Shown piece after piece: positions 7,647 through 44,906 of a DNA stretch of 64,000 bases. The stretch is from Bilabrum cf. latius (lineage: Eukaryota). The notes under the pieces are model-generated. The model had not been told where the DNA came from and did not search any database. It saw nothing but the letters and a program-made list of their open reading frames with translations. Positions within the stretch are counted from its first letter, which is position 1; every line of letters starts with the position of its first letter. Made by a program: the position numbers and the translations under genes. The stretch is from contig OZ237760.1 in the NCBI GenBank assembly GCA_965178125.1, positions 620,001-684,000 of the forward strand, given 5' to 3'.

Positions 7647-7817
7647 GGTTTTTTGAGATACGAATGGATCGGGTCCCGCGGGTGGGCCCATGATGTGGTT
7701 CCGTATTTGCGCGGCGCCTATAACCGAGCACCTCCTTCGGAATTGGCCAGACTGTGCAGACAGCAAGTCTATTGATAGCATCGCCGATATTTTTGCTTAC
7801 TTTCCGCTGATTTTATC

Positions 7818-10800
7818 ATGAGCTCTGGCCCGGGGAACCGCAGCCTCCCATTCTCTGTGTTTTGCATTCGTTTAGAACGAATACTGGAAGTCAAGAAGTC
7901 GGGGTCCCGGTCGATTCAAGATAAACGACGAGCAATCCTGTTCCCCAAAAGTATGATTGAAATGTGGCGGTCTTGGCCTGCTGATGCCGAAGCTGGAACC
8001 GCTCGGTCTGATGATCCCGCCGGAAGCGAACTGGCCCCAGAACGCCAAAGCATAGGTGACATCGCGCCGTATATTCGGCTACTGCTGCCGCAAGAATCAC
8101 ACAGAAACTTTGGTATGAAAGAAAAAAGTCTTGCAGCTGCATTCGCTAATGCGCTCTAGCGAAATAGCCTGCAGAAGACGCTTGAAGATGCAAAAAAGTA
8201 CATTGGCAACTTTGGCGCTGCCGTCGAGAAGTACGTGGACGCCGCTGGAGAGCGCTCGCTGTTTCGTTCGTACCGCCCAGACATTCGTAGTAAGGATATT
8301 CTCGAGGCGTGGAAGAAGCCGCGTCGTCGGGGGGTCCTCACCGTGGCAGAAGTGGACCACATGCTGCATCGGCTGCATGTGGTGAATCGATCGGGCAGCA
8401 ACACAGACAAGTCGGAGAAGCGCTAGGCGATCATGCGAGAGGCGGTCCGGGCTATGGCCCCGTGGGAGCTCAGGTGGTTTGTCAGCATCATCCTTAAATT
8501 CCTACACATTAAGATGGACTATAGAAGCATCCTTCCCGCCCTCCACCCCGACGCTCTCACGGTGTTTCAAAGCAACGCGGACCTTAATGATGTCTGCTAC
8601 AGTGAGACGCTGCGCGACCCCACCCAGAAAGCATTCAGCAGCGTGAAGCCATTCAACATGATCATGCCAATGCTGGCGGAAAGGGTGCACTCCAGGTTGG
8701 CACAGTCTGAGCATGAGACCATGCGCCGGGCATGTCTCTGGTTCACAAAATCATACGATGACCCAGCTGCGGGTGGCATGGCTACCACTGGCGCTGCTGC
8801 CATGATGGACGATTTCGATGGCCTGTTGGGAGACACGGGCGCAGGGCCGATCGAGGAAGATGATGAAGAGGCAGTCCGCACGCGCGATCTTGGCTGGTTG
8901 CAGAGGCGCCACCAGGGTGGTTTCTTTGTTGAGGACAAGCTGGACGGGTTCAGACTGTTGATCCACAAACGGCTGCCACTAGCTGCTGGCGGTGGGGCCT
9001 CCTCAGCTCCGACTGCGTCGTCCTCATCATCCTCTGCTGCTGCTGCAGCTGCTGCCTCTGGACCATCACAGCCTGGTCTGCTTGCTGGGGTTGGTGCCTA
9101 GTCCGAAGTCATGTGCTTTAGTAGGATGCGAATCGTAGAGAGCAAGTTCTGTGCAGTTTTGCAGGACCACGTTCGGCAAAGCGTACGAGCTGGTGATGCC
9201 GTGATCGACGGCGAGCTGCTGGTGGTGGACGCGTCTGGCGTCCCTTTGGACAAGCAGCTGCTGCGGCCGGTCGCAGGCGTAGAAGTGGAGGCAATCAAAT
9301 CGCACAGGGAGGGTCATACCGGTAGCTCCTCATCAACTTCGTCCTCGAGCTCATCCGCAAAGCCGTCGCCATACAGACATGGTGCATCGCTTGCGGCTGG
9401 GACTGGCTTCATGGGCGGCGGTTTTGGCGGCGTGTACGGCGGGTCACAGGGCGAGGAGGAGCCCCTCCTTCCGGCTGGTGCGCCCATCGATCCCATGGAT
9501 GACGACTTTTAGCGACTGCGGGGCCTCGCGTGGAGCAAGCGCGGTCAGTCCGATCCTGAAGGTGCAGCGAGGGCAGGCAAAGCAGGGCGCCTATCTAAGA
9601 GAAAGCAGCCGCGCAAGCACACTACCATGCGCGTAGCGCAAGAATTTGGTCCTGATGGCGACATGGGCGCAAGCATGCTGGCCGAGCGTGGCGACAGTGA
9701 TGATCGTGACGAGGACGCCGATGAGGATGAGGACAAAGACGAGGCCGGTGGGAACAAGGCAGCCGCGGGTGGCAACGGCGACTTCAACTGGGACGCGGCC
9801 GGCCTGCACCTGCAGCACGTGGCGTTCGACGTGCTCTTTGTAGATAAATGGGACGAGGGCAGGATCAAAGCAGAGTGCAAGCCTGGCCTAATTGCCCAGC
9901 TCGAGCTCCTGAGGAAGACCTCGGGGGCGCAGAAGGGCCAGCTGCCCACGGGTGACCTCACTCGACTGCCGCAGTGGCAGCGCAACATCCTCCTGCGAGC
10001 CTTGGTACGGCCCGCCCCGGGGCGTATCCACCTGCACGAATCCACTTGGGTCAGCTCTCACGCACCACGGGAGGTGCTGGACAGCCTGCCAGCCGGCAGC
10101 AGCGACATCGACATCATGGCTAGGCACCTAGGCATGCTGTACACCAAGGCAAGCGAAGCAAAGCTAGAGGGCATCATGCTGAAACGATCCGATGCCACGT
10201 ATGAGCTCGGTGATCGCTCCAGGAAGTGGCAGAAGCTGAAGCCGGAGTACGTGCCTGGCGCCATGGACACACTCGACCTGGCGGTCCTGGGCGCATGCTA
10301 CAGTTCGGGCCGGTCTGCCGGCCGCAGGGGGCTCACTGGACTGACTCACTTCATCGTCGGCTGCAGGGTTGAGTCTCCTGGGGAAAGGATCCGGTTTGCG
10401 CCGTGTGGGAGGGTCGGCACGGGGTACACGTTTGATGAGCTTCGTTAGATCCAGACGAGGCTGACCCGCTGCATGGTGCAGAGGCAGCTGCCGCCCGGTG
10501 CCAGGCGATCCGGAGCTGAAGGCTCTGCAGATCTGCCAAAGGAGCTGTTCGGCGAGTCGCGGTTTACTCCCGACCACCAGCCCGACTTTTACGTGAGGCC
10601 AGAGGCGATCCACAACACCGTGGTGGTGGAGGTAATGGCATCGCAAGTGCGCGAGTCAGACGAGTTCGGTGCCGGCTTCACGCTGCTCTTTCCACGGGTA
10701 GAAGATGTGCGTCGTCCGCAGGTGGGGTCGGCAGAGGTAGATGCAGTGGACGAAGATGGTAGTATGCAGGCCGTCAGCTTGCGAGACCCGAGAGACAAGG

Positions 10801-12584
10801 GGCCCAGCCAGTGCACCCACATAAGCGAGCTCAAGCAGATCATGGTTGACAGGAATGGCCACCTCAGGAACGAGCAAAAGGCAAAGGAGCTGGCCGCGAA
10901 GGGCGATTCGGGCGGGCGCATGCGCGGCATGTACAAATAGGGTTCGGGCAAGAAGCGGAAGATGGCAGTCACGCGCACGAACATGGCCTCGGCGCTGTCG
11001 TTCAGCGTGACCGATGCAAACGTCCCGCTCCTGCAAGCGGCGAGCGGGGCGGGTTCGGGTGATGCAGAATCCAAACCGCTGGCAGGCAATGACATATTCG
11101 TGCAGCTGCAGGGTGGCACATCGGAAGCCGCAAGGCGGAACAACGCTGAGGTCCGCGCGCTCATGGGGCGCCTAGGAGGCACGTTGTTATCGAATGAGAG
11201 AAATGCTCGGTACGTGGTGATCGTCGATTCCAAGGACGCTGGCGCAGCCTCCATTCTTTCGTCCGCGAAGCGGTTGTACTCGAACGCACAAGCCAAAGCA
11301 TCCGCCAAGCGAGTGTCCGCTATGCGGTGGAAAAACCCGAAAAGGCAGGAAGAAGACCTCCGCAAAGCCGACAGGATCGAGGAGGAGGTGTGCAACCGCG
11401 ACTTTGTGCTGCTCGAGTGGCTGCGTGCCTGCGACAGGGCCGGGCACGTTGTGCCGATCCGCTGGGAGCACGTCATTGTGCCCAGCTTCCAAACTCGCCA
11501 GGAGCTGACCAGGATCAGCGACCAGTTCCACGACTACTACGAAGAGGACGCCACGAAGCAATCACTGGAGCGGTCCCTCGCAGAGGTGGAGCGGCAGGTA
11601 CAGGCGCTGGTTCGGGCTGGCGCAAGGGGGAGCTCGGGTGCTTCCGCAGCCAAGAAGCGTCGAATTGACACATCAGCGGGCGCAGGTGCTGATCTGAGCC
11701 AGCTGGCGCTGTTGCACGGCAGCGAGAGGGAGAGGGAGGACGGTCGTGCTGCATCTCGCGAGGAGCGATTCGACGTGGCTCTGCATGGCATGCTTGCGCA
11801 GCTGATGTAGGACGATCTGGATGGCGAGGGCGGTTCGCAGGACGGCGCGAGCCCGTTCGGCGACTTGGGGTTCCTTACGCAGGGTGAAGCTGGCATGTTC
11901 ATGATGTGGGTGCCTACTTCGTGGGCGTTGATCAACCGCCTCGGGGCGGCATCTGGCAGCTCTGCACCTTCGAAAGCTGCGGCCCGTGGTAGGAGCAAGC
12001 GGGCCAAGGGCGAGCATGCAGGGCCACAGACAGCTGCCGCAGTGCCGAGACGCCTCGTTGTATGGTTCGATGGCAGGCAGCGCGGCACAGTCATAGGCGG
12101 TTCCGACATAAAAGCTGTCCCTGGGTCGAGTTCGGGAAGGGCACTTGCGCTGCGGGAGACATACCTCGCGTAGATCGACTGCGCGTGCATGTGGCTGCAG
12201 AGCCGGGGCGCTGCCATTGCCGGCAGTCGGGAGGACGAGGACGTCCTGGTCGAGGTGCACGGAAGTGGCCCTCCTGGTCCTGACTTTGTGGCGCTTCCAG
12301 GGCGGGCTGTGGTAGGCATGGAGTGGGTGGAGGCTTGCAAGAAGCATGGTACTGCAGTGGATCCGAGTCAGTTCCAAATCTGGTCGCCACAGGACAGCCC
12401 TGCTGGAGGCATTGGAGGAGCACCCATGGAAGATGACTTTGGTATGCCCGCTATCGGCCGAGGCGGATCGAAGGGGCAAGCTCCCATGCAGGGCGCTGCT
12501 CGCAACTCTGGTACGCCAGGTGTTGCCGCAGTGCAGAGGCGGGCACGCAAGGGTAAGAAGAGGTTTACCCGCAAGAGGGGCTAA
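7818..12584 (+). CDS. LIG4: DNA ligase IV (NHEJ), ~1,588 aa, intronless, 8 in-frame TAG
   Basis: N-terminal DNA-binding domain (IRLLLPQESHRNFGMKEKSLA), motif I EDKLDGFR, IDGEL, AFDVL, EGIMLK, Y..GDRSRKWQKLKPEY, DTLDLAVLG, RVGTG, LLFPR and BRCT-like C-terminal segments. TAG at 8157, 8424, 9099, 9510, 10446, 10938, 11808, 12171; ends at TAA 12582-12584. Confidence 0.93.
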
Positions 12585-12712
12585 GTATGAATGCCAAGCA
12601 GGGCAGGCCTAGTAAGTTGGCGCCGGAGCACCCGATTCTGATGCAGTTGCTACGAAAGTATCCATTTTTTGTTCACACAACTTCAAACTCTGCAACAGCC
12701 TACTACAGGAGG

Positions 12713-14677
12713 TCAGGTCCTCCCCGCGGCACCCATCGGCACCTTCGGAACTGCCGACTTTTCAGCACTCTCCTTGCCATTCTGCCCACTCGTCGCCACC
12801 GTACCCAGCGCCACCGGGTCCTCGTAATCCTCCTCCCTCGCGACCTTGACCTTCCTCCTTCCCCAGCTGGTGTTGAGCAGCCCCCTGGGGTTCCAGATGT
12901 GCATGCAGCTCTCCGGCTAGACCTGGTACTGATCGTCGACCGCCCTGCACACGATCTCCACGTCTGCCTCCTTGGGCGCGGCGGCACCCTTGCCGCCCTT
13001 ACGCGCCTGCTCCAGCTTTGCCTGAGGTACGGGTACCTCGGCGCTCCACAGGGTCCACGTCCAGTCCCTGCCTCTCTTCGCCTGGTGCGCCGCGTCGGCT
13101 GGCTTTTCCTCCAGCTCAGCCTCCGTCCAGGTGTCGCCTCCGTCGGCAGACACGTCCACGCGCACGATCTTGCGGCCTCCGCCACTGTAGGCGTACCCTC
13201 GCACAGGCACGCCATCCACCTCGACCTCCCCCAGCGGCAGCACCGCACCCTCCTTCGGCTCGCACACCTGCCCCTAGATCGGCAGGTCCTGGATCGACGC
13301 GGCGGTTTCGTAAGGAAGCTTGGAGGGGTCCGCAGAGGGCGAGAATGACTTATAGTCGTGCTGCTGCCAGTGGGAGGGGCTTTCCTCCTCTGCCAGCACG
13401 ATCCGGTTGAGCCATTTTACCTGCCTGGCACCCACTACCCCGGGTGCAATCAGCCGCAGGGGATATCCGTGGTCTGCGGGGAGCTCTTCGTCGTTCATGG
13501 AGTGCGCGATGATGACGTCAGCGGACGACTGGAGCGCCTTGTGGGCCGGGACAGAGGCCCCGTAGCACTTCCCCGTGATGTCGCAATCAGCGCCCTCCGC
13601 CTGCACGTGAAGCACCCGCCCTAGTTCCGGGTTAGCGCCCCCCTGCATGATGCCGTCCGGGTCCACCCCCGCGTCTTTGAGAAGGTCCCTGAGCCTGACC
13701 CCCGTCCACCTCGCCGTGCCGATAGCCCCGTCCCTCCAAGAGAGCCCCCGGACCTGCCTTGCCTCACTCATCTGCTGCCTGCGGTTACCGGCGCACTGGA
13801 GGGTCACGGGGACCGTGACCTGCGGCAGCCGGTGCTTCAGGTCGTCCACCGTGTATGCAACCCGCTTGCCTCCGAGGCCCAGCCCGCTCACTTCGAGCCT
13901 GAAGCGGCCCGACTCGACGTCTTTCGCTGGAATGTGGGGAACAGCCAGGTGGTTTCTCTTGTAGTGAAGATCGTTTGGCGTGTAGAAGTGCGATGTCAGC
14001 AGCTGGGGGTTGGTCTCGGCATTGAACGGCTGGCTCGAGTTGATGTCGAGGCCCATGCCAGCCAACGGCCGGTCGGGCTCGTGCGCGAACGGGTCGCTAT
14101 CCTCCATCTATTTCTTTGGTTGCTTTCTGGGCTTGGCGGCTAACGGGACGTCTTCTGGGTGCAAGTTGCCAATGCGAAATGTCTCGAGAAGCGAGCGAAC
14201 GCTCTGGCTGTCCTTGTGTATGGCAAACACTTTCCAGAACGGTTCCACGGACCCGCCTGCCGCCATCATAATCTTATCTTTTCCTCCTGGGTGGCTGTCT
14301 ACAAAGTTTGTCACGTCATACACGCCATGTCTGTATATGACCCAGATACCGCCGGTTTCCTTCGACACGTGAGACTTAACTTCTTCTAGCCGAAGAGTGG
14401 GCAAGCCCGCGGTAGGTTCCCCGAGTACGATCCCACCATTGCGTGTATCATGCGATTCAACAGCCTCTGCATCATGCTAGCAACGCAACTGATACGTTCC
14501 GGCGCAGGCTGCGGCTAAAGAAGCGGCTGTTGCTGCAGCCCAGCCAAACGACGAACCGTCGAATCTTCGCCGCCCTTCCGTAACTTCCAACGCACCTAAT
14601 CGGCTACTAGTGGCCAAGCACGCTGCATTTCGGCACGCAAAGGCTATTCGCCAACTTCTCCGGCCTGCCTGACGCAT
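12713..14677 (-). CDS. SUOX: Sulfite oxidase (targeting peptide + cytochrome b5 + Moco + dimerisation domains)
   Basis: Cyt b5 motif VYDVTNFVDSHPGG; PFNAET, RNH, TLQCAGNRR, HGYPLR..PGVVGARQVKWL, GYAYSGGGR, IWNPRGLL. TAG at 14477, 14108, 13274, 12917; ends at TGA 12713. Confidence 0.95.
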
Positions 14678-14825
14678 CGAAAGGCTTGTTGAGCTCGCTT
14701 TGTCCTGGTGCAGCTGACCGCTGATGTTAGTTCCGCAACCGTCGCGCGCGGCGCCCCAGCAGAAAAGTGCACGCTACGCTTTCATTGCACTTGCCTGATT
14801 CCGGCCATCGCGGCCGAGCAAAAAC

Positions 14826-17800
14826 ATGCAGCAGAGTGATAAACTATCTCTTTAGGTTTCGCGTTGGGATCCAGGTCGCCGAAGGCTTCGTTGCTTCGAA
14901 TGTAGTTAGCAGTAGAGGCACGACTTCTGGGCATCTTGGCGACGGTTCAGGCTACTAATAGCCCTATCTGCCCTCGTTGTAGCCGCCAGGATCAGTTTTG
15001 TTCATATTATGCATAGCAGGCATGCTAGACTTCGCTATGAGACTTCGCTGGAATTTGATAAGGATTCCTAGTAGAAGCTGATGTACGGCAGACCAGCAGA
15101 ATTTACGCTTGATGATGGGCACGTTTCGCCGCCTTGGATTGATGATATGCCTGCCGCCGGATAGCTTTACTTACACGACCATGCTCGCCTGCTGGAAAGG
15201 GAGACTGGCGATTCGGCTGGCGAAGAGTCTGAACGATAGTTGCACCCCACTGAATACGACGAGGTCTTTGAGGGCAGTGGCAAGAAAAAGAAGCCAAAGT
15301 CCGACCCAAAGGACGATTTTACTATTCGAATCATGCTATGGGTTACATTGCCAGTGTCCATCTTGATGTGCCTCGCGCTGATGGCAAACTACATTACCGA
15401 CAAGCAGCGTCGTAGGCACCCTGCCTCGCTCGTCTTGGGTCGCTCCATCTACGATGCGATATGCTGCCTCGTTCTGCTCAGCTCCATGATCGTGCTGGAC
15501 AAGGACTCTAAGAAGGACGGCGGCTCGGACGCTGGCAGCGGCGAGGAGGACCTGTGCAGGCCTTTCAGCTTCTTTGTGGAGTTTGCTGCCCTGGGCGCGG
15601 AATTTTACGTCCTCATGCTGTCTCTTGATTTCATGATCGCGGTGAGCAACCCCTTCACGAACTTTCGCCAGAACAGGGGCCGCTACCACTTGGGCGTGGG
15701 CGTCTGCTCCGCCTCCATGTCGCTCGCCATGGTGATGATCGAAGGGGGCTACAAGAAGGGGGAGCCCTCCTTCTGGGGCGAAGACAAGGTCCTTGGGATC
15801 TGCTGGATTCGGAGAGACAACGGGGACACGGATCCCACCAACGTGCTGACCTTCTTCGTGGCCCCCATGTGCTTCGTGTTCGTGGTGGCGCTGTACGCAG
15901 TCATGTTCGCCAACCAGCGGCTCGGACAGGGGCTGCCAGCCACGCTGCAGACCCGGCTGTCGGTGTTTAGGACGCACATTGCATTTGTGGGCAGCTATGT
16001 CGTGTACTGGTTCATCTTTGCGGCCGCGTACATCGCCAGTTTGACTGAGAGCAAGAAGGACGGGAGCAGGGACACCCAGGGTGTGGGCATCGCGGTGCTG
16101 CTCGCGATCGCCGTGGGCTCCAGAGGAATCGTGACTGGGCTCGTGTGGTTTGCATCCAGGAATGCCATTTCCTGCTTGTGTGCAGGAAAGCAGGACGGCA
16201 GTGGCGGCTCCAGCAGGCGGCGGACGGGCAGGGCTAACGACCTGAACGTCGCCTTGAGGAAAGAGATCCTCTTCTACACTACCTTTGGGATCCGCAAGTC
16301 GGTCAAGTATGCCGGCAGGTTTCCGAAGTGCGACCGGACGGGCGGCGTGAACCCGAACTCTGCCACTGCGAGGCGGGAGGGGCTGGGTAAGGTGGGTATC
16401 CACTACAACCGCATACTGCTCACGCGCGAGTTCGAGGCGGGCAGCTGGACCCGGCAGAGGAGAGGGGCTGGCGATCATGGGCGCAGGGGGGCCGGGCGTG
16501 GCAGAGGCAGGGCAGGCAGAGGCGAAGATGGGGGCTCGGCAAGCAGTGCAGCCACGGCTGTGCCCAAGATTGAGGCCAGGGGAGAGACTGCGCGGGTGAC
16601 CGGGGGCTCGTCCGCCTCCGGTGCTCGCGGTGGGGCGGATCGCCAGGCCACGCTCCGGGCAGTCAGGGTGTCGGAGTCACACGGCGGCATCGGACAGCTG
16701 GTGAGGCGCGGGAGCGGCACGGTATCTGGGAGCTACGTGCCGCCGGCCATGGGAGGGACCTCAGAGCTTAGCAATGAACATGATATTGGAGCAGGTGCCG
16801 GGCAGGGCAATGGTACAGGTAGAGCGGGACGAGGCGCGAGATCTTCCGCCATTGCGTACATACAGCAGGGGCCGCGAAGCCGCAGGCGTCGTCAGGCGCG
16901 CGGCGTGGCCAAGCTGGCTGGCGCAGCGGTCCGGGCGGGGCAGCACGTCGCCAAGACGATCGGCTCCCAGATGGGCTCTATGCGGTCAGCAGCCGGGGCT
17001 CCAACGCGGACGGACTCCGGCACTTTCTCGCTGGAACAGAAGCGGGGGGAGTACCAACCGACTAGAGGAGCCTAGAACGGCCAGTCTCAGGCTCGCAGCT
17101 TGGCTGTGCCCGACAAGAAGCGGGCCTAGACGGTGGGTGTTGGCCAGTCTCGCCGAATCACCGCCATCTCTCTCCCACGGATGAGCCACGAGTACAACTA
17201 GAGCCATGACGGCGGCGGCGGATCTCCCCACCTTGGCGTGGTGGGTGGTATGGAGGGCGCGGAGCCTGAGCTGGGTCTGGTGGGCAGCGGCGTCGGCGCC
17301 TCTCCATCGAGGGGCGGTCGCAACGCATCGATCGGATTCGCGGCGGAAAGCGCACGCAGGGCACGTGAAAGTGGCCTTCCCCCGGGGATGCAACGGTCGG
17401 TGACGGAGATGGGGCACCTACGGGGCCGCACGTCCATGCCTGCCGCAGCGAAGCGCGACAGGCGAACCTCTGGTGAATCGAGCGAGAGCGATTTTGTGGC
17501 TGGGCTGGGCAACCAAGAAGAGCTTCGGCAGGAGCAGGAGCGGGAGGAGAAGGCTGCGATGGCCGGCGCTGCCGACATTCCCATCGCGTTGGTGAGCGGT
17601 GCCGGCGGAAGGGGCCAGAGCGGGGCCGGTGGCAGCACGCCGACTGGCGTGGCAGGTGCGCTCAATGCCGCTCTTGGGCTCGGAATCAACACGCAGGCGC
17701 AGCAGCAGGGCGCCGACATTTCTGCGCTGGTGAATCCCGACGGGGCTCGCTCTGACGTGGAAGTGACGTCATCGTCCGACTCGAGCGACGGGAGCTCAGC

Positions 17801-20800
17801 GTCAACTGGATCTACTGGAAGCGGTAGCCAGTCTGGGTCCGAGTCGGTGTCGGGAACCGTCCGAAGTGTGAGGACAGGGACGACCGGCGGCGACGCCGTG
17901 GATGCGAGCAGCAGCGCGGCCGGTGCGACAGGTCAAGACCACTCTATTCTTCGGCCAGCGCCTGGCGATGATAGCAACAACGGAGCAGCGGGTCGTCACG
18001 CCAATACGCCGGAGGGCAGCGAGGCCGGGAGCCGGCTAGCGTCCATCGGAGCCTCCGACGACAGCGAGAACGACGAGGGGATCGAGGGTGGGATGGCTGC
18101 CCCACGGTCCCGGTCGCGGGGGCCTCCGATCGCGGTTGCCACAGCGGTGGCCATTCCCGTGACTGGGGGTTCGGGCGGGTCTGGCACTGGCTTGGACGCG
18201 CAGCTAGACTCCGAGATGGACGCGATCCAGAGACAGCAGCAGCTGCAGCGCGCCAGTCACCACGATCGCAGCTCTCTGCCGCCGCTGACCGCGTCTGCTA
18301 CCAACTCGCACACAATGCGGTCCGTTCCGGCAGATTCGCTTCACAGCCTCAACGCCGGGGAGCCCTTGCGGATCAAGACCACGGGTGGGCGCGAAAGCGG
18401 CGACCGAGTGGATGCAGACAGCAGCGGTCACGCCACCCCTGACATGTTCTCGCGGATGTCACCCGCCCCGGGCAATTTGAAGATCGAAGATGCCTGGGAT
18501 ACAACGCACGGGGTCGCCGACCTGCACCCACCAATGGGCACCAATTTGGACGCTGCCTAGGCGCAGGAGCTGCGGGCTGGCTTGCTGGGCACGGGCGCGG
18601 GAGTGCACACTGGTATCGCATCCAGGCTTGCCCTGCATCACCACAGGCTGCAAGCGCAGGCCAGGGAGGGCGACGGGACCGGATCCTCCTCGCACGCGCG
18701 GGGGTCCTCTCCGGGGAACACATCGAACGAGGGGAAGGCGGCAGCGGATGGCACCACGACGTCCTTGAGCTCGAAGCACCACCACCACCACCATCACAGA
18801 AGGGGCAGCCACCATCGGCACCATCGGCACCATCGCCACGGCCACCACCGGAGCCACGGTCACGGTCACCACGACAAGAACGACGTGCGGACCAGGTACT
18901 CCCGCATGTACGGCGGGTACGGCCCCGGGCATTTTATTGGTGGATTCGGCGGGGAGCAGACGCATAACGACCTGATGCTGTTCGCCAAGCAGTGGGACCG
19001 CATTCGCAAGTGGATGTCGCTGGAGGAGCGCTGGCAGCACTCGGAGAAAAAGAGGCAGCACCGCCTCAGGAAGCTGAGAGACGCACCAGTGGAGGACAGC
19101 GAGGCGCAGACCCGGCTGCGGGAGCTGGTTGCACCCCATCCTAGGCCCATGCCCGGCTCTAACCCCACCTCGGCTGCCCCATACGAGCACACAACTCTGC
19201 CAGCGATGTCTAAGGGCGCCGGCAGCTTCTGGGAGAGCTGTCTAGAAGACACAATCTTCGGGGAGGTGCTGCAGTACCTGACCTGCGGGAACCTATTTGG
19301 GTGCGACAACGAGCAGGCGTTTGTTTTTAGAGACTACGAGCCGCACATTTTCAAGAGGATTCGGGAGCAGGATGGCATCGAGTAGAACGCATACGAGAGC
19401 GCGTTAGGAGAGACCCGTCGCGAGAAGTTCAGCGAGGGCGCAAGCGGAGCATTCCTGTATTTCAGCGGCGACGAGCGGTTCATCGTGAAGACGATGCAGA
19501 AGGAGGAGTGCGACCAGCTGCTGGCGATGCTTTCGGACTACCAGCAGCATCTCAAGGCGTACCCCGACAGCTTTCTGACTAGATTCTACGGATGCCACAG
19601 CCTTCGGATGTACGGGCACGTCATGTACTTTGTCGTGATGGGCAACGTCTTCATCACGCAAGGGAAGACCATCCACGAGAGGTTTGACCTGAAGGGTTCC
19701 TGGGTCAACCGGCACAGGCAGCCTGTGGAGAAGGGCAAGCAGATGGAATGCAGGTACTGCAACCAGAAATTCGTGGTGGGGGACAAGCGCGAGGACGGCA
19801 TGTGCACGGCGAGACCGAACCGCAACCACGAGCCCAACAACGTCAGCAAGGACAACGACCTGAATTTCAAGCTGAGGCTGGACCACGCAACCACGAGGGC
19901 TGTCGGCGACACCATCATCGCGGACACCAATTTCCTTCGCGACCACGGCATCATGGACTATAGCCTTCTGCTGGGCATTCACCGCGAAACGTATCACCTG
20001 ATGGTGGAGAACAACGACGAGAACGGCGATGGTCTCGTCTCTGGCGGCGGTGCCTCTTCAGAGCTCTCTGCAAAGCGAGGAAGCGGGACAGGGGGCTCTC
20101 GCTCGCATCTCTCGAGGGATGGAGGGCACGGGAACGGGAACGGCCGTCCGCCGCGCATGGGCCGGCACCTCGCGACCACCAGTCATATTCGCGGCGTCGT
20201 GGCCGTGTCAACTGAGAGCAAGCTGGGCTAGTGGGCCACTGAGGACGCGTAGAAGGAGTACATCGGGGAGGAGGGAATGCCTGAGCCAAGGGCTGCTAGC
20301 CAGGGCGGTGGGGCCTCCGCGTATTCGGCGGGGGCAGGCAGCCGCAGTGGGATGGGGCAGCGGGGCGGGCACCGCGGCGGTTCGTTACCGACGGATGGTC
20401 TCCGCGGCGTAGAGGATACCCGCCACCACGGGCACCACGGGTCCATGCGCTCGCACGTCTCTAGCCTCCGTGGCGGGTCCATGACCCATAAACCGAGCCC
20501 GCTCCGATCTGCAGTCCTACCCAAGCGCGGTGAGGGGGGTGGGGACCAGGCCAGGTCCAGGCAGTCCCAGTCTCGCGATCGCTCCTCAAGGGCCGGTCAG
20601 TCGGCAGGCGGGGTGGGACTCGACAAGACTGCGTCAGGGGCGTTTCACGGCAGCAAGATAATGGATGCCGGGGGCCAGAGCAGGGGCGTGCTGCGTCGAC
20701 TGGACACGCCGAAACCGAGGGAGGAGGGCTATCGCGCTGAACGGCGCACTGGATCCGGCGGCAATCACCGGGATCGAGACATGACGCAGCGGCTGCGGCG

Positions 20801-22607
20801 AGCTCCCACTGAGGGCGGGCAAACCACCTGGGGCCTTCACGTCGGTACGCCCACGGAGAGAGGCAGCGGGGGCGGTGGCAGCGCCTGGGGCCTGGAGAAG
20901 CCCCCCACTCCAGCGGTAGGGCGGTCGTTGGACATCGGGCCAGACGCCGGACCTGGGCATGGCCTCGCAGATCAGGCGGACGCGGAGGAGGCCGAGCTGG
21001 AGGCCCTCCGGAAGGGGGGCCGGAACCGCGGGGGTGTCCAAACCGGCGGGAACAAGCAGCCTTCGGGTGCGATCAGGGTGTCTGGCGCCCAGCGGGACGC
21101 CGACGACATGGAGGACGTGCTGGGGCTCGCGGTGGGCGGGTTTGCGGGAGAGCTGCGGGACGAGCTGTGCGAGGGGCAAGGTCGGAATTCAGGCGATGAT
21201 GCGCCGCCTTCTTCGCCGCCGAGAGGGGGCGTGCAGGACGAGGAGACACTGGGCATGCTGGCAGGTCATGCTGTGTGGTCCGACGCCCGTGGCATGGCCG
21301 TTGTGGACGAGGAAGCAGCGCGGCGGCCGGACGACGGCGATCTGCCCGGAGGTGATGATGAGGGGCAGGGGGGCGACCTCGGCGTGGTGTTGCACTCGGC
21401 GTCGCACCGCAACAGCAAGTCCAAGAAGGGTCGCGATAGAGGTACCGAGGACGGCAAGGGCAGAGGCCGGGCGGCAGGCCCCGTGGCGCAGGTGGTCGGC
21501 CTCAGATAGGTACCCTCACGTGGCTCGCTTGCGCAGCAAGCACTGGGCATTGCTGCTGGCGGCGTGGGGAAAAGCGAAAGCCAGAATGGGGCCGGGAGCG
21601 GCAGCGGCCCGGCGGTCGCCCCAGCACCAGGCCTGCACGCGCCTCGCTTCTCGCGTGTCCGTTCAGTTTTGGGGCACGACACAATGATGTCAGGAAAGGC
21701 CAGCGAGGCGGGCGGCGGAGGGCCGTCTGCTGCAGCTGCATCGCGTACAGTGGATGGGCATTCGGAGGCCGGAAGGGGAAGGCTGCGGCACAGGCGCGCG
21801 CACCGGCACAAGGGTGGTGGAGGCGCAAGCAGCAGCGCGCTGGCGAAGGCAGCTGCTGCGGAGGAGGGCAGGGTCTCGAGCAAAGAGGCTGGTGCTGGGA
21901 CGGGCGGCATGGTGGAGTCGCAGTTCCGCAGTTTTTACGGCGGTCTCCGCGCTGCGATGGTAGAGTCGCCCGGCATCTACTACATGGGAGTCATCGACAT
22001 CCTGCAGGCGTTCACGCTCGAGAAGAGGATGGAGCGCTTCGTGAAGACATACTTCCTGTGCCAGGACCCGCTTGGGATCAGTGCGATCGAGCCGAGGCAG
22101 TACGCGAGCCGGTTCCGCCGCAGGGTTGTGTACTAGTGCCTGGACCACTACGTGCCCACGTCCGACCAGAAGGATCTGGACTTCGAGGACGAGGCCTTGG
22201 ACATGGAGGAAATGGAGGAAATGGGCTGCCTGCGCGGGTGGTTGCGGTGCGAGGGGGACGATCATGAGGACGAGGTGGAGCGGATTTGGTTGGAGAGGCT
22301 GGCAGATGAGCGGAGATAGGGTTAGCTACAGCGGGTGGCTGTGCTGCGGTCTGGACATGGGTCTGGGCCCGGCAGGACGGGGACGAGGAGGAGCTCTATG
22401 CACGGGTCTGGGTCCGCGTGGGGGGTGCAGCAACCGCCGGTGCTGGGGCGGTAGGCCACGGTATCTGCTTACGGACGGGCGCGGCTGCCATCGGCCGAAC
22501 ACGCCAAGGCTGGGCCTGTCGCAGTTCCTAGGTCGCACGCGCAGCACGGCAGAGCGACCGCAGCTCTGGATTCCGGCGACTTGAGCAAGCCCCTGCTGCG
22601 GGACTAA
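14826..22607 (+). CDS. GPCR-PIPK fusion (7TM receptor + PIP5K kinase), ~2,590 aa, about 19 in-frame TAG
   Basis: 7TM region ~15330-16160, then the LR(x)9GI motif LRKEILFYTTFGI. PIPK motifs FRDYEPHIFKRIR, FSEGASGAFLYFS, FIVKT, FDLKGSW, KDNDL, IMDYSLLLGIH and YYMGVIDILQ. One frame with no TAA/TGA from ATG 14826 to TAA 22605-22607. The start could alternatively be 15009 or 15081. Confidence 0.9.
18777..18872 (+). repeat. His-rich (CAC/CAT) low-complexity coding tract within GPCR-PIPK
   Basis: Encodes HHHHHHHRRGSHHRHHRHHRHGHHRSHGHGHH. Confidence 0.8.
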
Positions 22608-22745
22608 TTGTGCATACCCGAATCGCATGCTCCGTTTCAAAGTTAGTGTGGTTGTGCCCAAAATGTAGTAACGCGATGACACGAAAGGCATTCGGATCAC
22701 TGGCAAACCCGGGAACGTCATCGCTTCGCCTTGCCTACCAAAACT

Positions 22746-22778
22746 TTGCCCGAAAATCAAGATTCGTTCGTTCGTTCG
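22746..22778. promoter_or_regulatory. Intergenic 33-bp motif TTGCYCGAAAATCAAGATTCGTTCGTTCGTTCG, copy 1
   Basis: 32/33 identical to 53046-53078; lies ~70 bp upstream of the Nudix ATG. A regulatory role is inferred from position only. Confidence 0.5.
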
Positions 22779-22847
22779 CTGCTCTTGAAATAAGCGCTAC
22801 AACTACTTGGGGCGTCATATTGTCCTCTTTGACATCCTTAGGGCTCC

Positions 22848-24587: not shown

Positions 24588-24728
24588 GCCGGTTCAGTGA
24601 ATTGCAGCCTTAGATCTGCATAAAGCCTATCGACACTGTTCGACATCACATTGGATTTCACGTTGGAAATATATCGTAATCTGGCCACATCCGCAATTGC
24701 GCACCACAAAGCAGCAGCACCGCGCCAC

Positions 24729-32333: not shown

Positions 32334-32566
32334 ATTGCTGGAACTTCGATCTGAAATCTCCGAAACCAACGGTCTGTAAAATTGCAATTCCGAGTTGTTG
32401 ACCGGCTGCATGCACTGGTGGCCACTGACGGGCAGAGGTGACCCTGTGTGTACGATGCGTAGTCACGACTTCGATCCAAGCGTGATGGCAGGAAACGCGC
32501 CAATTGTATTAGAGAGTATGCATTGCAAGCACGGCAGCACTGCTGTAGGCCTAGAGCCAGCACTGG

Positions 32567-34942: not shown

Positions 34943-37900
34943 TCAGAATCTACGGTCCCTGTCAGACTGCCCATTCCCGGCCCGCTGGATCTGCTTGTCC
35001 CTGTCCCCACCGGTCGGGCAGCACCCGCAAGCACAACCGGCCCCATCGTGGCCGGAAGTCCCACCCCTCGCGCTGCACGTGCCGCTGCTTGGCCTGGATT
35101 TCCAGTCCGTGGGCTGTGCCGCGACGGGGAGGCTGGAGCTGTGCATGCGGGCCTGCTCCATCTGACGGCACGACTGGCCTAGCTGCTGCGAGCGCGCGGC
35201 GGAATATGACGGGGACAATCGACTTTCTAACCTTCTTTCATCTTCCGCGGTGTGGCACAGGCCACACCGGAAGTACGCTCCCAAGCACCCGCAGAGTGGG
35301 GGGTCGAACGGTTCCTGCGCCGACAGGAACTTGAGGGTGACGTACGGGTCCTCGGCACTTGGGCCGGTCTCCTCTGTGCCCGATCGCACCATCCACGCGC
35401 GGTAGAATTCAATGGGTGCTATGGCCACAACCACCATGAGCAGGTTTGTCAGCCAGAGTTCGGGGCTCCAAACAACGACGTTAAACGATCCCAAGTCGAT
35501 AAAGTTCGAGAGGGAGCTCGTGTTGTTGGCCATGATTCCCACGACGAGCGAGAGGATGTGCATCCCGAAGATGGCGATGATGTTGTACCAGGTCCAGATG
35601 CTGAGCTCGTACAGCATCACAAAGTCCTGCACCAAAACGTACCCGTTGAACATCACCAGCCCCAGCGACTCGTACACGCTGCCTTCTTCCCATCGCCGCG
35701 CCGACAGGAAGAGGATGAGCATCATCACGATGGCGTGGTAAGCCGCGCGCAGCAGCCATAGGCCGAACTCCCTGTAGTTCAGGAATGTGTTCTCGTTGCA
35801 GCGGCGGTACACGGTCGGGAAATTTACGGCGTGCACCTGGTTGATGTCCTTGTCCACGCAGAAGAATACGATGGGGACGAACAGGGCGGCGTTGTACGCA
35901 GCCACGCAGAGCGAGTTGAACAACGACACACCGCTGAATCCCGCCAGCCACTGGAACCCGATCTGGATGAAGCAAAACACGAAGGACTTGTAGAAGCTAT
36001 ACTGCGCGATCACCGCCGTCCTGTAGTACGAGTAGTGCCCGTGCACGAGGAGGAGCCTTTCCAGAGCGCGGAAGAACGCGACCTGATAATCGGCAGCGCG
36101 GGAAGCCTGCAATCCCTCCTTGCCTCGGATGCCCACTCCCACCTGCGCCTCCTGAATCATGCTGACGTCGTTGCCGCCGTCTCCTATGGCAAGGGCCACG
36201 TGGCCCGCGTCTCGGACCAGCCGCACTAGCTGGGCCTTCTGCGCCGGAGTGACCCTGCAGCAGATGACCGACTTGGCCTGCAGGCACAAAGCGGCAAACT
36301 CGTCCCGGTGAAACTCAAGGGCGATCCGGACGGTGTCACCCTTCACAATAATCGTGTAGGGCTCCTTGGCCGGGCCGCCAGAGGCGCCCGCGAGGGGGTT
36401 GCTGGAGCTCCCTGCACCGCTGCCCCCCGCGCTGGGCCCGGCGCTGACGGACGAGTCGGGCGCCCCCACGCCCCTAGTGCCGCACCACGCGGCACCAAAG
36501 ATGCGCAGCAGGCCGGTCCTCTCACCAGGCAGTTCCTCACCGAACTTGTACCCCTGCCCCTGCAGCTGCTGCTTGAGTTCTCTCAGCCGCGCGCCCACCT
36601 CTGTCTGGTCCTTGCCCGAGAGGACGAGGGGCGGGATGGTGTCGCTCTAGTTCTAGGCGCCTGCGCGCACCGGCAGCAGCCTGCACGTCTTTGCGATCGT
36701 GCCGGCGGTGCTCTGCTTGTCCCCCGTGCACATCCAGAACCTCACGTTGCCCTGCCTGAGCTTGGCGATCGTCTCGGGCACCTGGTCCTGCAGCTTGTCC
36801 TCCACGGCGGTGGCGCCCACCAGAACGAGGTCTCTCTCCATCCGCGCGAACAGCTCGTTGCGCTTGTCCTTCCTTCCCTCCAGGGCGGTGTTGGCCGCCT
36901 GGAACTCCTTCACGAACTCGGCGTGCTGGTCCTCTGATAGGTCCCTGTACCCGAAGACGAGCGTCCTGTAGCCCGCCTTGGCCCACCGGTTGACCCTGCT
37001 CTGTATCCTATCCCTGTGCGGCTCCTGCCCCTGCGCGGTCATGATCTCGCCCGGCTTGGTGTTGAGGAGCATGTCGTCAGCCCCCTTGACGTACAGGCGG
37101 CTCTGGCCCCTCCCGCCGGGGGTGCTGGGAGGCAGCCGCACCAGCACGGACATCCGCTTCCTGTCCGAGTCGAAGGGAAACACCGCAACCTGCTTGTACT
37201 CGATGCGCCCGCCCGGCTCGTTCACCGTCACGGTCTGCTCATCAGTGCCCCCGTCCCGGGCCAGCAGCGCCACGCCCAGCTGGGCCGAACCCTTGAGGAA
37301 GGCCTCCTCGTCGGGGCTCGACGCCTTGTACTTGACGGGTATCTCGTCCAGCCCCGCCAGCTTGCCGGTCGCCGCCGGCATGCTGAGTGCCGCTGAGGCG
37401 GCCGCGCCACCGCCGCTCCCTGCCGCCGGCTGGTTCTCCTTCGGCTCCGGCCTCACGTCGTTGTTGAGCGACATGTTCCTCAGCATCTCCAGCACGCTCG
37501 AGGCAGTTGCGCCGTCCTGCGCCTCCCTCCGTGTCCTCGCGGCCACGTGGTTCGAGAGGAGGGACGTGCGGCCCATGCCCACGGTCGATGGGGTGGGCGA
37601 GGCGGAGCCGCTCCCGCCGCCGCCCATCCGCTTGCTTTCGGAGTGGCCGGCGGCACCACCACCACTGCCGCTCTCGCTCTCCTCCTCCTCCGCCTGCGCC
37701 TCCTCCGAGCTGGGCATCACGGAGTCGTCCTCACCGTACGTGTCCTGCGCCCTGCCCAGCACGGTCACCATCTTGAGCACCATGATGTTCTGCGTGAGCG
37801 TGCCTGTCTTGTCGGTGAGCACGTACTCGATCTGGCCCAGGTCCTCGCTGAGGGCTGTGCTGTTTGGGATGGCCGCCGAGTCGGTGACAGGGTCGTAGAG

Positions 37901-39574
37901 CTGCTGGTCTCCCGCAATCATGTTAGAGTAGACCAGCTTGGCGAGGTCCAGCGTGACCTTGAGCGATATGGGGATCATGGTGCTGTTAAGGAGGAGGAAC
38001 CTGGCCGGGATGATGAGCGGCTGGTAGCCGGGCTCATCGTCCCTGCTCGGGTACAGCAAGTACCAAGTGTCCCGGCCGTTGTTCTCTTTCCATGTGTTCC
38101 CCAGTACGCCTAGGATGGCCACCAGCACCAGCTAGAACGCAAAGATGTAGATGACGATCTCGTTGATCGCGTCATCGGTACGCGTAAACTTGGGAGCCGG
38201 GGGCTTCTTGTTCTTGCCAAACTTGGTCGCGTTGCCCACGTACACGACGAGGGCCAGGGCCCAGTCCGTGTTGCGGACGTGGGTGGCCTGCAGCAACAGG
38301 TTGCTGGCGTCCAGTCCGACCCCTTTCTCTCTCTGCCCCACGTCGGCTTTCTTCTCGTAGAGCACGCCCTCGAACTCGCCCAGGTTGTCGTCGGGGGGCT
38401 GGCAGGTCACCCCCCCCGTGAAAGAAGCGGCAGCGGCGGGGGTCTTGATGGACTTGGTGATGGGCCTGCTGAAGCGCCCCTTCAGATTGGACTCGCCGTC
38501 CAGGTTTGTCGTCTGGATGAAGCAGTCGCCGTTGGGTGCGGAGCTGGCCAGCAGGACGCAATCGCAGGGCACCTCGTCGTCTCCGTGCAGCTTGAGGATG
38601 TCGCCCACGCGCACGTCCCAGCTGGCAGTGCTAACCTCCTCTCCCCCCCGCAGCACACGCACCTGCCTGTTGTTGGCCTCGCGGTCGGACCTCCATCTGC
38701 CCAGGTCGTCCGAGGCTTCCTTAACGGCCGTGATGCCGAAAATCACTGCGAGCGAGCGAGCACGAGCGTGAAACGGGCGGCCAAGCACGGGAATGCAGGT
38801 TATGGCGCTGATGAAATACGCAGGGGAGTTGACGCTTCTATTCGACGAGCGGCGAATTTGCCAGACACGATCCGACCCGCACAAAAGTCCAAAACTACCG
38901 GAGGGGCGATGTTCGACTCCTGCAGGCCCTTTCTCACCTAAAAGCGGAATCCATGTCGTCAGTGGATCGACGGGAGTAATTTCACTGTTCAATTGCAGGA
39001 ACCCGATCAATAAAAAGTACAGATTCATTGGACGACTGCGATGGAAAAACGACGTGGTGTGCATACGGGTGGAAACAGTGGGCCAGTCGGCTGCACTGAA
39101 TTCGAATACAGGAGGGCAAACACAAGGACCGGTTACGTTGATATCAGTTCCAATGCCTTGCTAGGTCAGCTGGGAGAGCACAGCAAGCAAGCGGCAATTG
39201 GGTGCACGCACGCACCTAGCTTCAGAACATGCATCGGGCTCGCCCTGCCAGCCAGGGCTATAGTTTACTTGCAGCTCCAATTCGGCACGCAAGAGAAGCC
39301 TGCCCGCTAACGCAATCAAGCTGTGGCGCACACCATGATGAACATCCAGACCGTGCACGAGCCAAACTAGGTTTGAAGCGTCCACGACATGCTTTCGCCA
39401 AACAATACTGCATCCTCACCTGAACTACTCAATAAGATTATACAGGATGAAGTTGTACCATGTATATTTCGTGTTTGTAATGGTGTTGTCGCCATAAGGG
39501 GCATTCGACTCAGGGTCATTGGCTAGGATCCGCCTTTCGCCCTCCTCCTCGCCACCCCACGGGCACATTCCCAT
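34943..39574 (-). CDS. P4-type ATPase (phospholipid flippase, ALA2-like); 3 exons
   Basis: NTITNTKYTWYNFILYNLIE*FS|RPMNLYFL; LDGESNLK; IPISLKV; DKTGTLTQN; SPDEEA; KGAD; TGDK; CCRVTPAQKA; IGDGGNDVSMIQ. Introns at 39036-39419 and 38746-38937. TAG at 39425, 38132, 36653, 36647. Ends at TGA 34943, though the 3' end may differ (see findings). Confidence 0.93.
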
Positions 39575-43070: not shown

Positions 43071-44906
43071 TCACTGCCTGCCGCCCTGCACCTCCTGCCC
43101 GGCTGCAGCACCCTCGGAGCCGCCGCCGAGCACGAGCCCGACCTCCTGAAGAGCCTCCGTGTCCTGCGTGACCCTCGCCACCACGCACGCCTGCAGCTCG
43201 TCGAACTGCTCCCGCTCCCGCTCCCTCCCCTCCCGCAGCTCGGCCGAAGCGCTCGCCCCTGCGCCCAGCCTGTCACTGAGGTCGGCGTTCTTCTTGAACT
43301 CGGTCTCGAATGCGCTCGCCTGCGAGGGGCAGACCACCTGTCCGGAGCACATCATCAGCGCAAGGTGCGCCGTCGCCCTCTCCTCCTCCGTGGAGGCGCT
43401 CGCAAGCCGCTTCTTGATCACGCTGCAGCGCTTGTCAAGGCCCTCCAGGCGGGCGGCCGCGGCGCGCTGGGCCTCCGTGAGCTTTTTCTTGGCCGCGGCT
43501 GCGGCCTCTGCGGCTCGCCGAGTGACGCCAGCGGAGGGTGCCGCCTGTTCCGCAGCCCGGGCGGCCTGCTCCGCCTTGTTGGCCCCGTGGGTCTCCCCCC
43601 CCTGGTCCAGGGCAGCCTTGACCTCTGCAGGGACCTGGGAGGGGTCGATCCCAGAGGAGTGGAAGACGAAGGCGGGTCTGCGGAGGGCTGCAAGCATCCT
43701 CTCCGAGAAGCGCGCGATCCGGTCCATGGCGGCAGAGGGCGAGTCCACGGCGGGCCGCACGTCCACCCAGATCGAGTCGAGGCTGCCGGTCCCATCCGCC
43801 CCAGCGTTGGGGTTCGGCTGCCCCTCATCCACAGAGTAGTAGTCAATGATGTACCTGACTTCCTTGCCGTCACCCCTGTCCACGTACCAGTCGTGCCTAT
43901 CAAAGGGGAACCCCCAGCCGAGCATGCTCTTGAGCTTGGCCTTGATCGAGAGGTCGTACGGACGTCCGCGGAACCGGCGCAGCTTGGGGCAGCCTGGCTT
44001 GTGTTCGCTGCGAGAGCAAGGATGCAGAGGTGAATGATGCAAAACATGAGCACATACGGCGGATGGATCACATGCAATACAGGGATGCCGCACTGTTGGG
44101 GGCGGCGCGCTACCAGGCGACACAGAGGCCAGCCCATCAGCACCGATCAGCCCGAGCACTGCGCAACGTCCGCAAGAATCCAGCCGGACAAGCAAAGCAA
44201 AACAAATGATTCCAAGCAGAAAATGCAATGCAATAGACCAGTCTCACGCTCCGTGCAGCTTCTCCCAGTCAAGGAGACGCTTCCACGTCAGCTCGTTCAT
44301 GCCATTGTGAATCGCCACTACCACGTCCATGTCGCTGGCTGTCACGTCATGCGCCTTGTTCTTCCTAACTAAAGCATTGTAGAACATCTGTGGGGACGGG
44401 TATGTCCAAGTTTCCTTCTCCGTGCCGCCCTTTGGGATGGAAGACCTCACTCGCTCGGTAGACAGAGGAGCGTCCTGACCAGGGGCAGGCTTCTGCGTGT
44501 CGAGCCCCTTCGGCATCATGTTATCAGGGTTGATCTCCTAGGAATAAACATTGTAAACCTTCCCTTTGGCCGCCGAGTTTTCTGCCTTAGGCTGGGTGGA
44601 CGGCTGCGAAACCTGCTCCTGGCTCGCCGTTCCCCGCTAGGGCAGCGTGGGATGGCCAGCCGGCAGGCTTGAGGCGGATGCCATAGCCTGGTCCGGAGAC
44701 TCTTTACCTTTGTCGTGGTACGGGCACTGGCCTGCCCCGGAGCGCATCATATCCGCCAGGCCAGGGATGCTCTTGGCTGACTTGCCGCTGTGATCAACAG
44801 GGCAAGACCCAGCTTTGGGTGCCTCTCCGTGATTAACTGGGCACCCTTTGGCCTGCGAACCGCCATCACCATCACATCGTGACATCGAGTTCGGGACATT
44901 CCCCAT
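43071..44906 (-). CDS. HCCS: Holocytochrome c synthase (cytochrome c heme lyase) with a C-terminal extension; 2 exons
   Basis: CPV heme-regulatory motifs (GCPVNH, SCPVDH); YNVYS*EINPDNMMP; LSTERVRSSIPK; WTYPSPQMFYNAL.RK; IHNGMNE..W; FRGRP..LS.KA; PFDRHDWYVDR; VRYIIDYY; VDVRPAVDS. Intron 44008-44247; TAG at 44637 and 44538; TGA 43071. Confidence 0.93.

Follow-up and report, generated by a model that had tools for sequence, protein, structure and literature searches.

A sulfite oxidase gene with four in-frame TAG codons and the genes around it point to a nuclear code in which TAG is glutamine and TAA and TGA are stops

We have analyzed a 64,000-nucleotide stretch of eukaryotic DNA (positions 620,001 to 684,000 of contig OZ237760.1, Bilabrum cf. 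latius assembly GCA_965178125.1; "the window" refers to this whole stretch) in which a sulfite oxidase gene on the minus strand carries four in-frame TAG codons. The genome very probably reads TAG as glutamine and retains TAA and TGA as stops, which is NCBI translation table 15; we give this assignment a probability of roughly 0.9. It follows from the absence of in-frame TAA against 83 in-frame TAGs, from genes that end in TAA or TGA, and from the occurrence of TAG at glutamine positions. The signal is genome-wide, with TAG a frequent sense codon across the window and not in sulfite oxidase alone. The window is nuclear DNA of a GC-rich, gene-dense, intron-poor, aerobic eukaryote, with about 20 genes in 64 kb.

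The sulfite oxidase gene

The sulfite oxidase coding sequence (12713..14677, minus strand) starts with the ATG at 14675-14677, stops with the TGA at 12713-12715 and encodes 654 residues when TAG is read as glutamine. The standard code splits this frame into the segments 14477-14773, 14108-14476, 13274-14107, 12917-13273 and 12713-12916, and single TAGs are the sole breaks between them. Under table 15 the gene is one open reading frame (ORF) from Met to TGA, free of frameshifts and of internal TGA or TAA over its 654 codons. Matches to Pfam predict, all on the minus strand, a cytochrome b5 heme-binding domain at 14162..14389 (PF00173 Cyt-b5, E-value 3.3e-16, 59.5 bits against a cut-off of 23.7), a molybdopterin-binding oxidoreductase domain at 13367..13930 (PF00174 Oxidored_molyb, E-value 2e-54) and a Mo-co dimerisation domain at 12842..13297 (PF03404 Mo-co_dimer, E-value 1.7e-32). 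By these profile matches the predicted protein has all three domains of the eukaryotic sulfite oxidase layout: cytochrome b5, molybdopterin and dimerisation.

The TAG at codon 67 (14477..14479, minus strand, as are the other three) lies in the N-terminal presequence region and that at codon 190 (14108..14110) in the linker joining the b5 domain to the molybdopterin domain. Codon 468 (13274..13276) is at the start of the dimerisation domain and codon 587 (12917..12919) is further inside it, so that this domain contains both of the TAGs that a first-pass annotation of the DNA had flagged as standing for glutamine. The reading frames given in that annotation, SIQDLPI[TAG]GQVCEP with the TAG at 13274-13276 and VCRAVDDQYQV[TAG]PESCMHIWNPRG with the TAG at 12917-12919, are reproduced exactly by our translation. 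The TAGs at 14108-14110 and 14477-14479 are also present in the gene, though they were not listed there.

Chicken sulfite oxidase (PDB 1sox_A) matches the window protein with an E-value of 1.6e-128, in an alignment that spans the chain from the b5 domain nearly to its end (residue 464 of 466) and is ungapped at every TAG. The b5 region also aligns with cytochromes b5 in PDB. The window protein and the animal-type enzyme, represented by chicken 1SOX, have in common the three-domain layout and the active-site motif TLQCAGNRR, which lies in the molybdopterin domain and is identical in the two; the C185S mutant and a second mutant entry in PDB differ at that cysteine. The window protein departs from the chicken enzyme in its longer linker, in about 23 residues inserted into the dimerisation domain, in about 40 extra residues at the C-terminus and in four glutamines written as TAG. 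Ahead of the b5 domain is an Arg-rich N-terminal extension of some 90 residues, which could be a targeting sequence for the mitochondrial intermembrane space. Apart from its four TAG-encoded glutamines, the gene is intact and ordinary.

The four breaks introduced by the standard code are also what would be seen if the TAGs were never translated, whether the gene is a pseudogene or the TAGs are due to introns, sequencing errors or RNA editing. The undisturbed 654-codon frame and the continuity of the chicken alignment through the TAGs argue against this, as do two wider observations: every long ORF of the window has the same TAG pattern, and a syntenic relative, the contig L001 described below, shares it with TAGs at other glutamine positions. 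Further evidence comes from contigs of four public runs, which were compared over positions 7700-24700. One 49-kb contig of run X1 covers 7700-22779, and run X5 has gene-sized pieces at 7761-12675, 12652-14691, 14799-22675 and 22751-24591. Over sulfite oxidase, gene-sized pieces are also found in X6 (12655-14694) and X7 (12683-14664); X5, X6 and X7 come from two studies. All of the long pieces listed, sulfite oxidase included, match the window with 0 differences and 0 gaps. The independent contigs of the four runs thus agree at every base, and neither an intron nor a base change removes the TAGs from the gene-sized contigs. The likelihood that the TAGs are untranslated is, in our judgement, next to nil.

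The depth of X5 jumps between neighbouring pieces (233 versus 34-38), and the pieces of X5-X7 have the look of transcript assemblies, a hint only, the RNA nature of the runs being our guess. Consistent with the ATG at 14677 as the start codon, the sulfite oxidase piece begins about 15 bases upstream of it. The ligase and sulfite oxidase genes are convergent, and their contigs share about 24 bases at the 3' ends (12652-12675). If the gene-sized contigs are transcripts, the 3' untranslated regions of these genes overlap and the 5' untranslated regions are about 15-30 bases long.

Identity of the residue encoded by TAG

Homologues of the sulfite oxidase were sought among 1.84 billion proteins, which gave 10,402 matches at E<=0.001, and the 150 best representatives were aligned with MAFFT. 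Among the best homologues listed, the near-full-length matches are 34-54% identical to the window protein, apart from one 77%-identical fragment (P0077). Of the 132 non-gap rows in the family column of the TAG at 12917, 131 have Q and one has R. The column of the TAG at 13274 is Q in 89 of 143 non-gap rows, followed by T (32), N (9), S (4), I (3), V (2), F (2), M (1) and Y (1). No row has L, W or E in either column. The first-pass annotation had argued from animal motifs that both TAGs align with Gln and not with Leu, Trp or Glu, and had proposed scoring the two columns in a SUOX family alignment; the two columns, both Gln-dominated and one nearly invariant, bear this out, and the chicken enzyme does have Q at both sites, in 'elpvqsav' and 'ynvqpds'. 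Only 9 of the 405 well-occupied sulfite oxidase columns are Gln-dominant, and two TAGs of two would fall in such columns by chance with a probability of about 5e-4. The columns of the presequence TAG (14477) and the linker TAG (14108) are variable or gapped; the latter has gaps in 54 of 150 rows, its commonest residues are A and S (18 each), and it carries no information either way.

A second comparison was made with L001, a 10.8-kb metagenome contig reached via P0077. Its gene order is the same as in the window: ligase, sulfite oxidase and the N-terminus of a phosphatidylinositol-phosphate kinase (PIPK). The stop-to-stop frames of these genes in L001 contain 9, 9 and 17 in-frame TAGs, respectively, and its sulfite oxidase and ligase end in TGA. 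The two sulfite oxidases are identical at 426 of 603 residues and show reciprocal exchanges of TAG and CAG: SI-CAG-DLPI-TAG of the window is SI-TAG-DLPV-CAG in L001, and DD-CAG-Y-CAG-V-TAG is DD-TAG-Y-TAG-V-CAG. Opposite the window TAGs, L001 has CAG at 12917, CAG at 13274, CCC at 14108 and CAA at 14477, the last a Gln codon in a poorly conserved context. The three gene pairs together provide 50 pairs of a TAG with a non-TAG codon. The partner is Q in 10 of these, E, R and D in 5 each, G, S and A in 4 each, V in 3, L, H and K in 2 each, and Y, T, P and C in 1 each. Where the context is conserved (at least 2/3 of 12 flanking positions identical), the partner is Q in 7 of 9, with one Y and one H. 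Scoring the pairs with substitution frequencies from the alignments themselves puts Q first, 13 log units ahead of H in the conserved subset and 20 log units ahead of E over all 50 pairs. Among 51 aligned TAG positions there is a single TAG-TAG pair, in the motif C-S-TAG near the PIPK N-terminus (L001 2..2587, minus strand; window 14826 onward).

Close variants of window proteins provide a third source of information. Public protein sequences that are 90-97% identical to the window flippase (P4-ATPase, 34943-39415) or to the PIPK protein (14826-22607) are P0162, P0402, P0403, P0405 and P0406. The flippase variant P0162 (1014 of 1059 residues identical, 96%) has Q at both of the TAGs that it covers, 36653-36655 and 36647-36649 (36647..36655, minus strand). 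The PIPK variant P0402 (623/644 identical, 97%) has Q, Q and E at three TAGs, and P0405 (203/216 identical) has E at its one covered TAG; pooled, the near-identical variants have Q at 4 of 6 covered TAGs and E at 2 of 6. P0402 and P0403 terminate exactly at window TAG positions, as expected if the variants share that TAG and a gene caller using the standard code cut them there. The database fragments P0077, P0162, P0402 and P0403 all start or end at or near TAG positions. A more distant protein, P0404 (242/315 identical, 77% over the aligned part), has A, K and A opposite TAGs and may derive from the L001 organism or a similar one. The run that contains the whole window also has contigs that are 90-99% alike, and the near variants suggest diverged haplotypes, paralogous copies or sister strains.

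Two other families have TAGs in well-occupied columns. In exon 1 of the cytochrome c heme lyase gene (holocytochrome c synthase), the column of the TAG at 44538..44540 (minus strand) is Q in 74 of 115 non-gap rows, with R in 16, E in 13 and T in 10; a second heme lyase TAG sits in an insertion without family counterpart. The flippase TAG at 38132..38134 (minus strand), in a membrane segment, has a column with Q in 61 and L in 52 of 119 rows. As for the family columns of the flippase TAGs at 36653 and 36647, one is gapped and one is D/N-variable. A TAG of the PIPK domain, in 'GIE[TAG]NAY', is opposite P in the comparison with PDB, in a variable stretch, and is uninformative. Overall, 4 of the 5 TAGs in well-occupied family columns are at Gln-dominant ones. 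With the five columns combined, Q has a log-likelihood of -5.7, followed by T (-22.1), R (-25.9) and, lower down, E (-29.0), with L lower still. Glutamine is therefore the best-supported reading of these comparisons, and four lines that are independent of the two flagged columns argue for it: the L001 exchanges, P0162, the heme lyase and flippase columns, and the five-column likelihood.

Glutamate is the residue that competes with glutamine in some of these data. It has been described as the meaning of UAR in Blastocrithidia and of UAG in one uncultured ciliate, in the portions of the literature available to us. E is found at 2 of the 4 TAGs covered by near-identical PIPK variants, is the joint second-commonest partner in L001 (5/50), and occupies 13 of 115 rows of the heme lyase column. 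It is, on the other hand, absent from both flagged sulfite oxidase columns, from the flippase column and from the conserved-context L001 partners, and its five-column log-likelihood is far below that of Q. The change of TAG to GAG, like that of TAG to CAG, is a single-base one, and Gln/Glu replacements of this sort are to be expected where constraint is loose, so that two such replacements in variable stretches are compatible with TAG as glutamine. We consider it very unlikely that TAG means glutamate. Leucine, to which UAG is assigned in the uncultured rhizarian exLh and in some marine ciliates, is the residue of 52 of 119 flippase homologues at 38132-38134 and the partner in 2 of 50 L001 pairs. 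The two flagged sulfite oxidase columns and the heme lyase column have no L at all, leucine is outside the eight best residues in the combined likelihood, and the near-identical variants give Q or E, never L. These observations make leucine extremely unlikely.

TAG as a sense codon throughout the window

The GC content varies between 55 and 67% along the window and is about 61% overall. When TAG is opened, the content of ORFs of at least 200 aa grows from 24,201 to 48,343 aa and the longest ORF from 612 to 2,603 aa; when TAA is opened instead of TAG, the same content is only 28,471 aa. With TAG open there are about 15 long ORFs on alternating strands. In-frame TAGs are present in 15 of 15, with 2-19 in each and a total of 126 in 17,632 codons. 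TAG is about as frequent in frame (126) as out of frame (135 and 152 in the two other frames). In-frame TAA and TGA are found solely as the final codon (3 and 11 times, respectively), against 44/67 and 267/307 out of frame. The glutamine codons of the window comprise 126 TAG, 593 CAG and 150 CAA, so that TAG accounts for about 14.5% of them (126/869). A single gene can contain as many as 19 TAGs, a number at which leaky read-through could hardly yield a full-length protein, and efficient decoding of TAG would be needed. The base after TAG is similar to that after CAG (C in 38% and 37%, respectively), a test too weak for use.

Pfam families were found in 8 of the 17 ORFs scanned: DNA ligase, PIPK, Nudix, DENN-plus-kinesin, GH79, P4-ATPase, Wntless-like and Myb. 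A further Pfam scan added cytochrome c heme lyase, serine carboxypeptidase and a Skp1/elongin-like fragment. The frames on either side of sulfite oxidase follow the general pattern. The DNA ligase-like frame (7776..12584, plus strand), whose orthologue is on L001, has 9 in-frame TAGs and ends in TAA; the membrane-receptor/PIPK gene (14826..22607, plus strand) also has in-frame TAGs and a terminal TAA.

TAA and TGA as stop codons

The use of TAA was assessed in the 10 of 15 long ORFs (11,572 codons) whose limits and recoded-codon counts are unchanged when TAA is opened. These contain 83 TAGs and 0 TAAs, where the CAA:CAG ratio of 150:593 would lead one to expect about 20 TAAs were TAA also a glutamine codon. 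The 14 complete ORFs terminate in TGA in 11 instances and in TAA in 3 (ligase, PIPK and Wntless-like). Past the two TAA stops measured, GC content at third codon positions (GC3), which is 0.75-0.78 within the genes, falls to 0.33 over 24 codons (PIPK) and to 0.53 over 55 codons (Wntless-like), values that are within the range of the flanks of TGA-ending genes. The GC3 of non-coding 3' flanks (n=6) is 0.47-0.64. We conclude that TAA is not a sense codon and acts as a terminator, on a small sample for TAA, and that UGA is a terminator.

An alternative is that TAA and TAG are both glutamine, as in NCBI table 6, and that TAA is just rare at high GC. UAR as glutamine is the commonest variant code in the available text of two surveys (PMC5304391, PMC11687900; both are cited throughout for the portions of their text that were available). 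TAA is indeed rare overall, with 379 occurrences on both strands compared to 983 of TAG, and the ligase, one of the three TAA-ending ORFs, has a TGA two codons past its TAA. The lack of any TAA in 11,572 codons speaks against this alternative, as does the fall of GC3 to non-coding levels past the two measured TAA stops; moreover, the next in-frame TGA of the PIPK gene lies beyond the end of its gene-sized contig. A code in which both codons are glutamine is, in our view, quite unlikely.

TAG might also have two meanings, glutamine inside genes and terminator in some contexts, comparable to organisms with context-dependent stops. In 6 of the 14 complete ORFs just 19-33 codons separate the last TAG from the TGA or TAA, and the tail of the Myb gene has a GC3 of 0.50, near the values of the six non-coding 3' flanks. 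No window gene requires TAG as a stop, however; downstream of its last TAG the sulfite oxidase remains conserved relative to the chicken enzyme, up to the end of the latter, and 13 of 14 ORF tails keep a GC3 of 0.58-0.84. A dual meaning of TAG is thus unlikely.

Decoding of TAG and points of caution

The reading of TAG as glutamine with TAA kept as a stop would have a simple mechanism, by analogy with other UAG-only codes as these are described in the available text (PMC5304391, PMC11687900). UAG would be read by a glutamine tRNA with the anticodon CUA, which would be unable to pair with UAA. Since a CUA anticodon reads UAG but not UAA, UAA can remain a stop; a UUA anticodon would read both. 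Recognition of UAG by eRF1 would have been lost or weakened, as is proposed for other UAG-only codes, leaving no effective competition at UAG. For Iotanema, eRF1 substitutions are described at positions in contact with the third base of the stop codon (PMC5304391). An Rfam scan of the window gave no family, and no eRF1 turned up among the window ORFs scanned against Pfam.

Several observations weigh against the assignment of TAG to glutamine with TAA as a stop, and they must be kept in mind. ARAGORN found no tRNA gene in the window or in L001-L004, and the decoding machinery is thus unseen. The pairing of 2 of 4 covered TAGs with Glu in near-identical PIPK variants is the main counter-signal. 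Of the 50 L001 partners of TAG, 40 are residues other than Gln, and most of these lie where conservation is poor and complexity low; the flippase column at 38132 is split between Q (61) and L (52), and another flippase TAG falls in the D/N column. In the six genes with 19-33 codons between the last TAG and the stop, that TAG may occasionally act as the terminator. The evidence on TAA comes from one 64-kb window, and X5-X7, though transcript-like, are runs without a record as RNA.

Other features of the window

The PIPK gene (14826-22607, plus strand) encodes 2,593 residues, with a multi-pass membrane N-terminus and a C-terminal PIPK domain that is split by long low-complexity inserts, including a His-rich run. 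A protein 32% identical to it, P0407, carries Pfam Dicty_CAR receptor and PIPK domains, and the window protein looks like a receptor-PIPK fusion. A 2,577-residue ORF at 24729-32462 (minus strand) has Pfam matches to a DENN domain near its N-terminus and to a kinesin motor near its C-terminus and may represent a single gene or two.

The heme lyase gene is split by a stretch of 240 bases at 44008-44247 (minus strand) that starts with GT, ends with AG and has an in-frame TGA inside. The Pfam profile of heme lyase is matched at positions 24-174 and resumes past this stretch at positions 200-298. The stretch is probably one of the few canonical spliceosomal introns in the window. In the flippase, about 60 residues at ~38720-38910 (minus strand), between 'IPL' and 'ITAVKEASDD', have no apparent family counterpart and may correspond to an in-frame intron or to an insertion.

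Relation to known codes and lineages

UAG alone is a sense codon in only a handful of nuclear genomes among those covered in the available text (PMC5304391, PMC11687900). Glutamine with UAA kept as a stop is described there for Iotanema spirale, Protocruzia tuzeti, Hartmannula sinica and Trochilia petrani, leucine for a rhizarian and some marine ciliates, and serine for Scotinosphaera. UAR as glutamine is described for many ciliates, hexamitids, an oxymonad, some ulvophytes and Amoeboaphelidium protococcarum (PMC5304391, PMC11687900 and the available text of PMC6299283). The label of NCBI table 15, 'Blepharisma nuclei; some phages: TAG=Q', covers a code that gives intact genes when the window is read with it, as for sulfite oxidase; the phages of table 15 are bacterial viruses, whereas the window, with its kinesin, PIPK, flippase and GT-AG intron, is eukaryotic nuclear DNA.

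Iotanema spirale has the same three assignments as the window, UAG for Gln and UAA and UGA as stops (PMC5304391), and UAG is a minority glutamine codon in both (about 8% in Iotanema, in the available text of PMC5304391, and about 14.5% here). Iotanema is, however, described as an anaerobic fornicate (PMC5304391), and the window has genes for a sulfite oxidase of the mitochondrial type and for a cytochrome c heme lyase, both of which Iotanema would be expected to lack; the window is therefore unlikely to come from Iotanema. Hartmannula sinica, Trochilia petrani and Protocruzia tuzeti also share the code of the window, with UAG alone as Gln (PMC11687900). As regards ciliates in general, the window differs from them in its 61% GC and its roughly 20 genes on 64 kb. 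Ciliate genomes are generally AT-rich, and ciliates are not known to have heme lyase; on these grounds of GC and gene content the source organism is presumably a non-ciliate.

Amoeboaphelidium protococcarum is likewise a non-ciliate eukaryote with a stop-to-Gln reassignment (PMC6299283, PMC5304391, PMC11687900). In the same sources both TAA and TAG are reported to be glutamine in Amoeboaphelidium, in contrast to the window, where TAA behaves as a stop, and two Amoeboaphelidium genomes have 40.5% and 39.9% GC (PMC10608142, Table 1) compared to 61% here. Given these GC values and TAA as glutamine, as described, the window organism is not Amoeboaphelidium, a genus that was also absent among the named matches of the homologue searches.

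Single genes of the window give scattered affinities, and none of the analyses put the organism inside or outside the ciliates. In a FastTree phylogeny of 148 sulfite oxidases the window and L001 sequences group with two Trichinella sequences (95% local support), and the next clade out contains Naegleria and mite sequences (84%). We read this grouping as a single-gene, long-branch artefact. The best named flippase matches are distributed among Cantina, Anaeramoeba, Physarum, Basidiobolus and others, at 32-45% identity. The named heme lyase matches are mostly green plants and algae, in addition to brown algae, a red alga, Arcella and Acrasis.

Significance

The code is of a known kind and the organism probably a new carrier of it. 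In the openly accessible literature, with subscription journals and the original aphelid papers outside the scope of the search, we found no report of UAG as glutamine in a GC-rich non-ciliate eukaryote; the authors of the genome may already know its code. We see even odds that the window represents a separate, so far unreported origin of UAG as glutamine with UAA as a stop, in a GC-rich, aerobic lineage that is neither ciliate nor fornicate. The change would then be old enough for at least two species to share it, the window organism and the L001 organism, whose sulfite oxidases are about 29% different. To our knowledge UAG and UAA almost always change meaning together, and a separate origin, if true, would be an additional independent case of their uncoupling.

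A further lineage of this kind would be a test case for the uncoupling of the two codons through a suppressor tRNA with the anticodon CUA and an altered eRF1. The present one combines high GC with long genes that hold as many as 19 TAGs, and a sister species uses the same code. Annotation under the standard code fragments nearly every gene of this genome or of its relatives, and translation with table 15 is advised. The finding is an addition to the short list of genomes in which UAG is glutamine and not a new kind of code, and the sulfite oxidase gene is one clean piece of what would be a genome-wide use of table 15.

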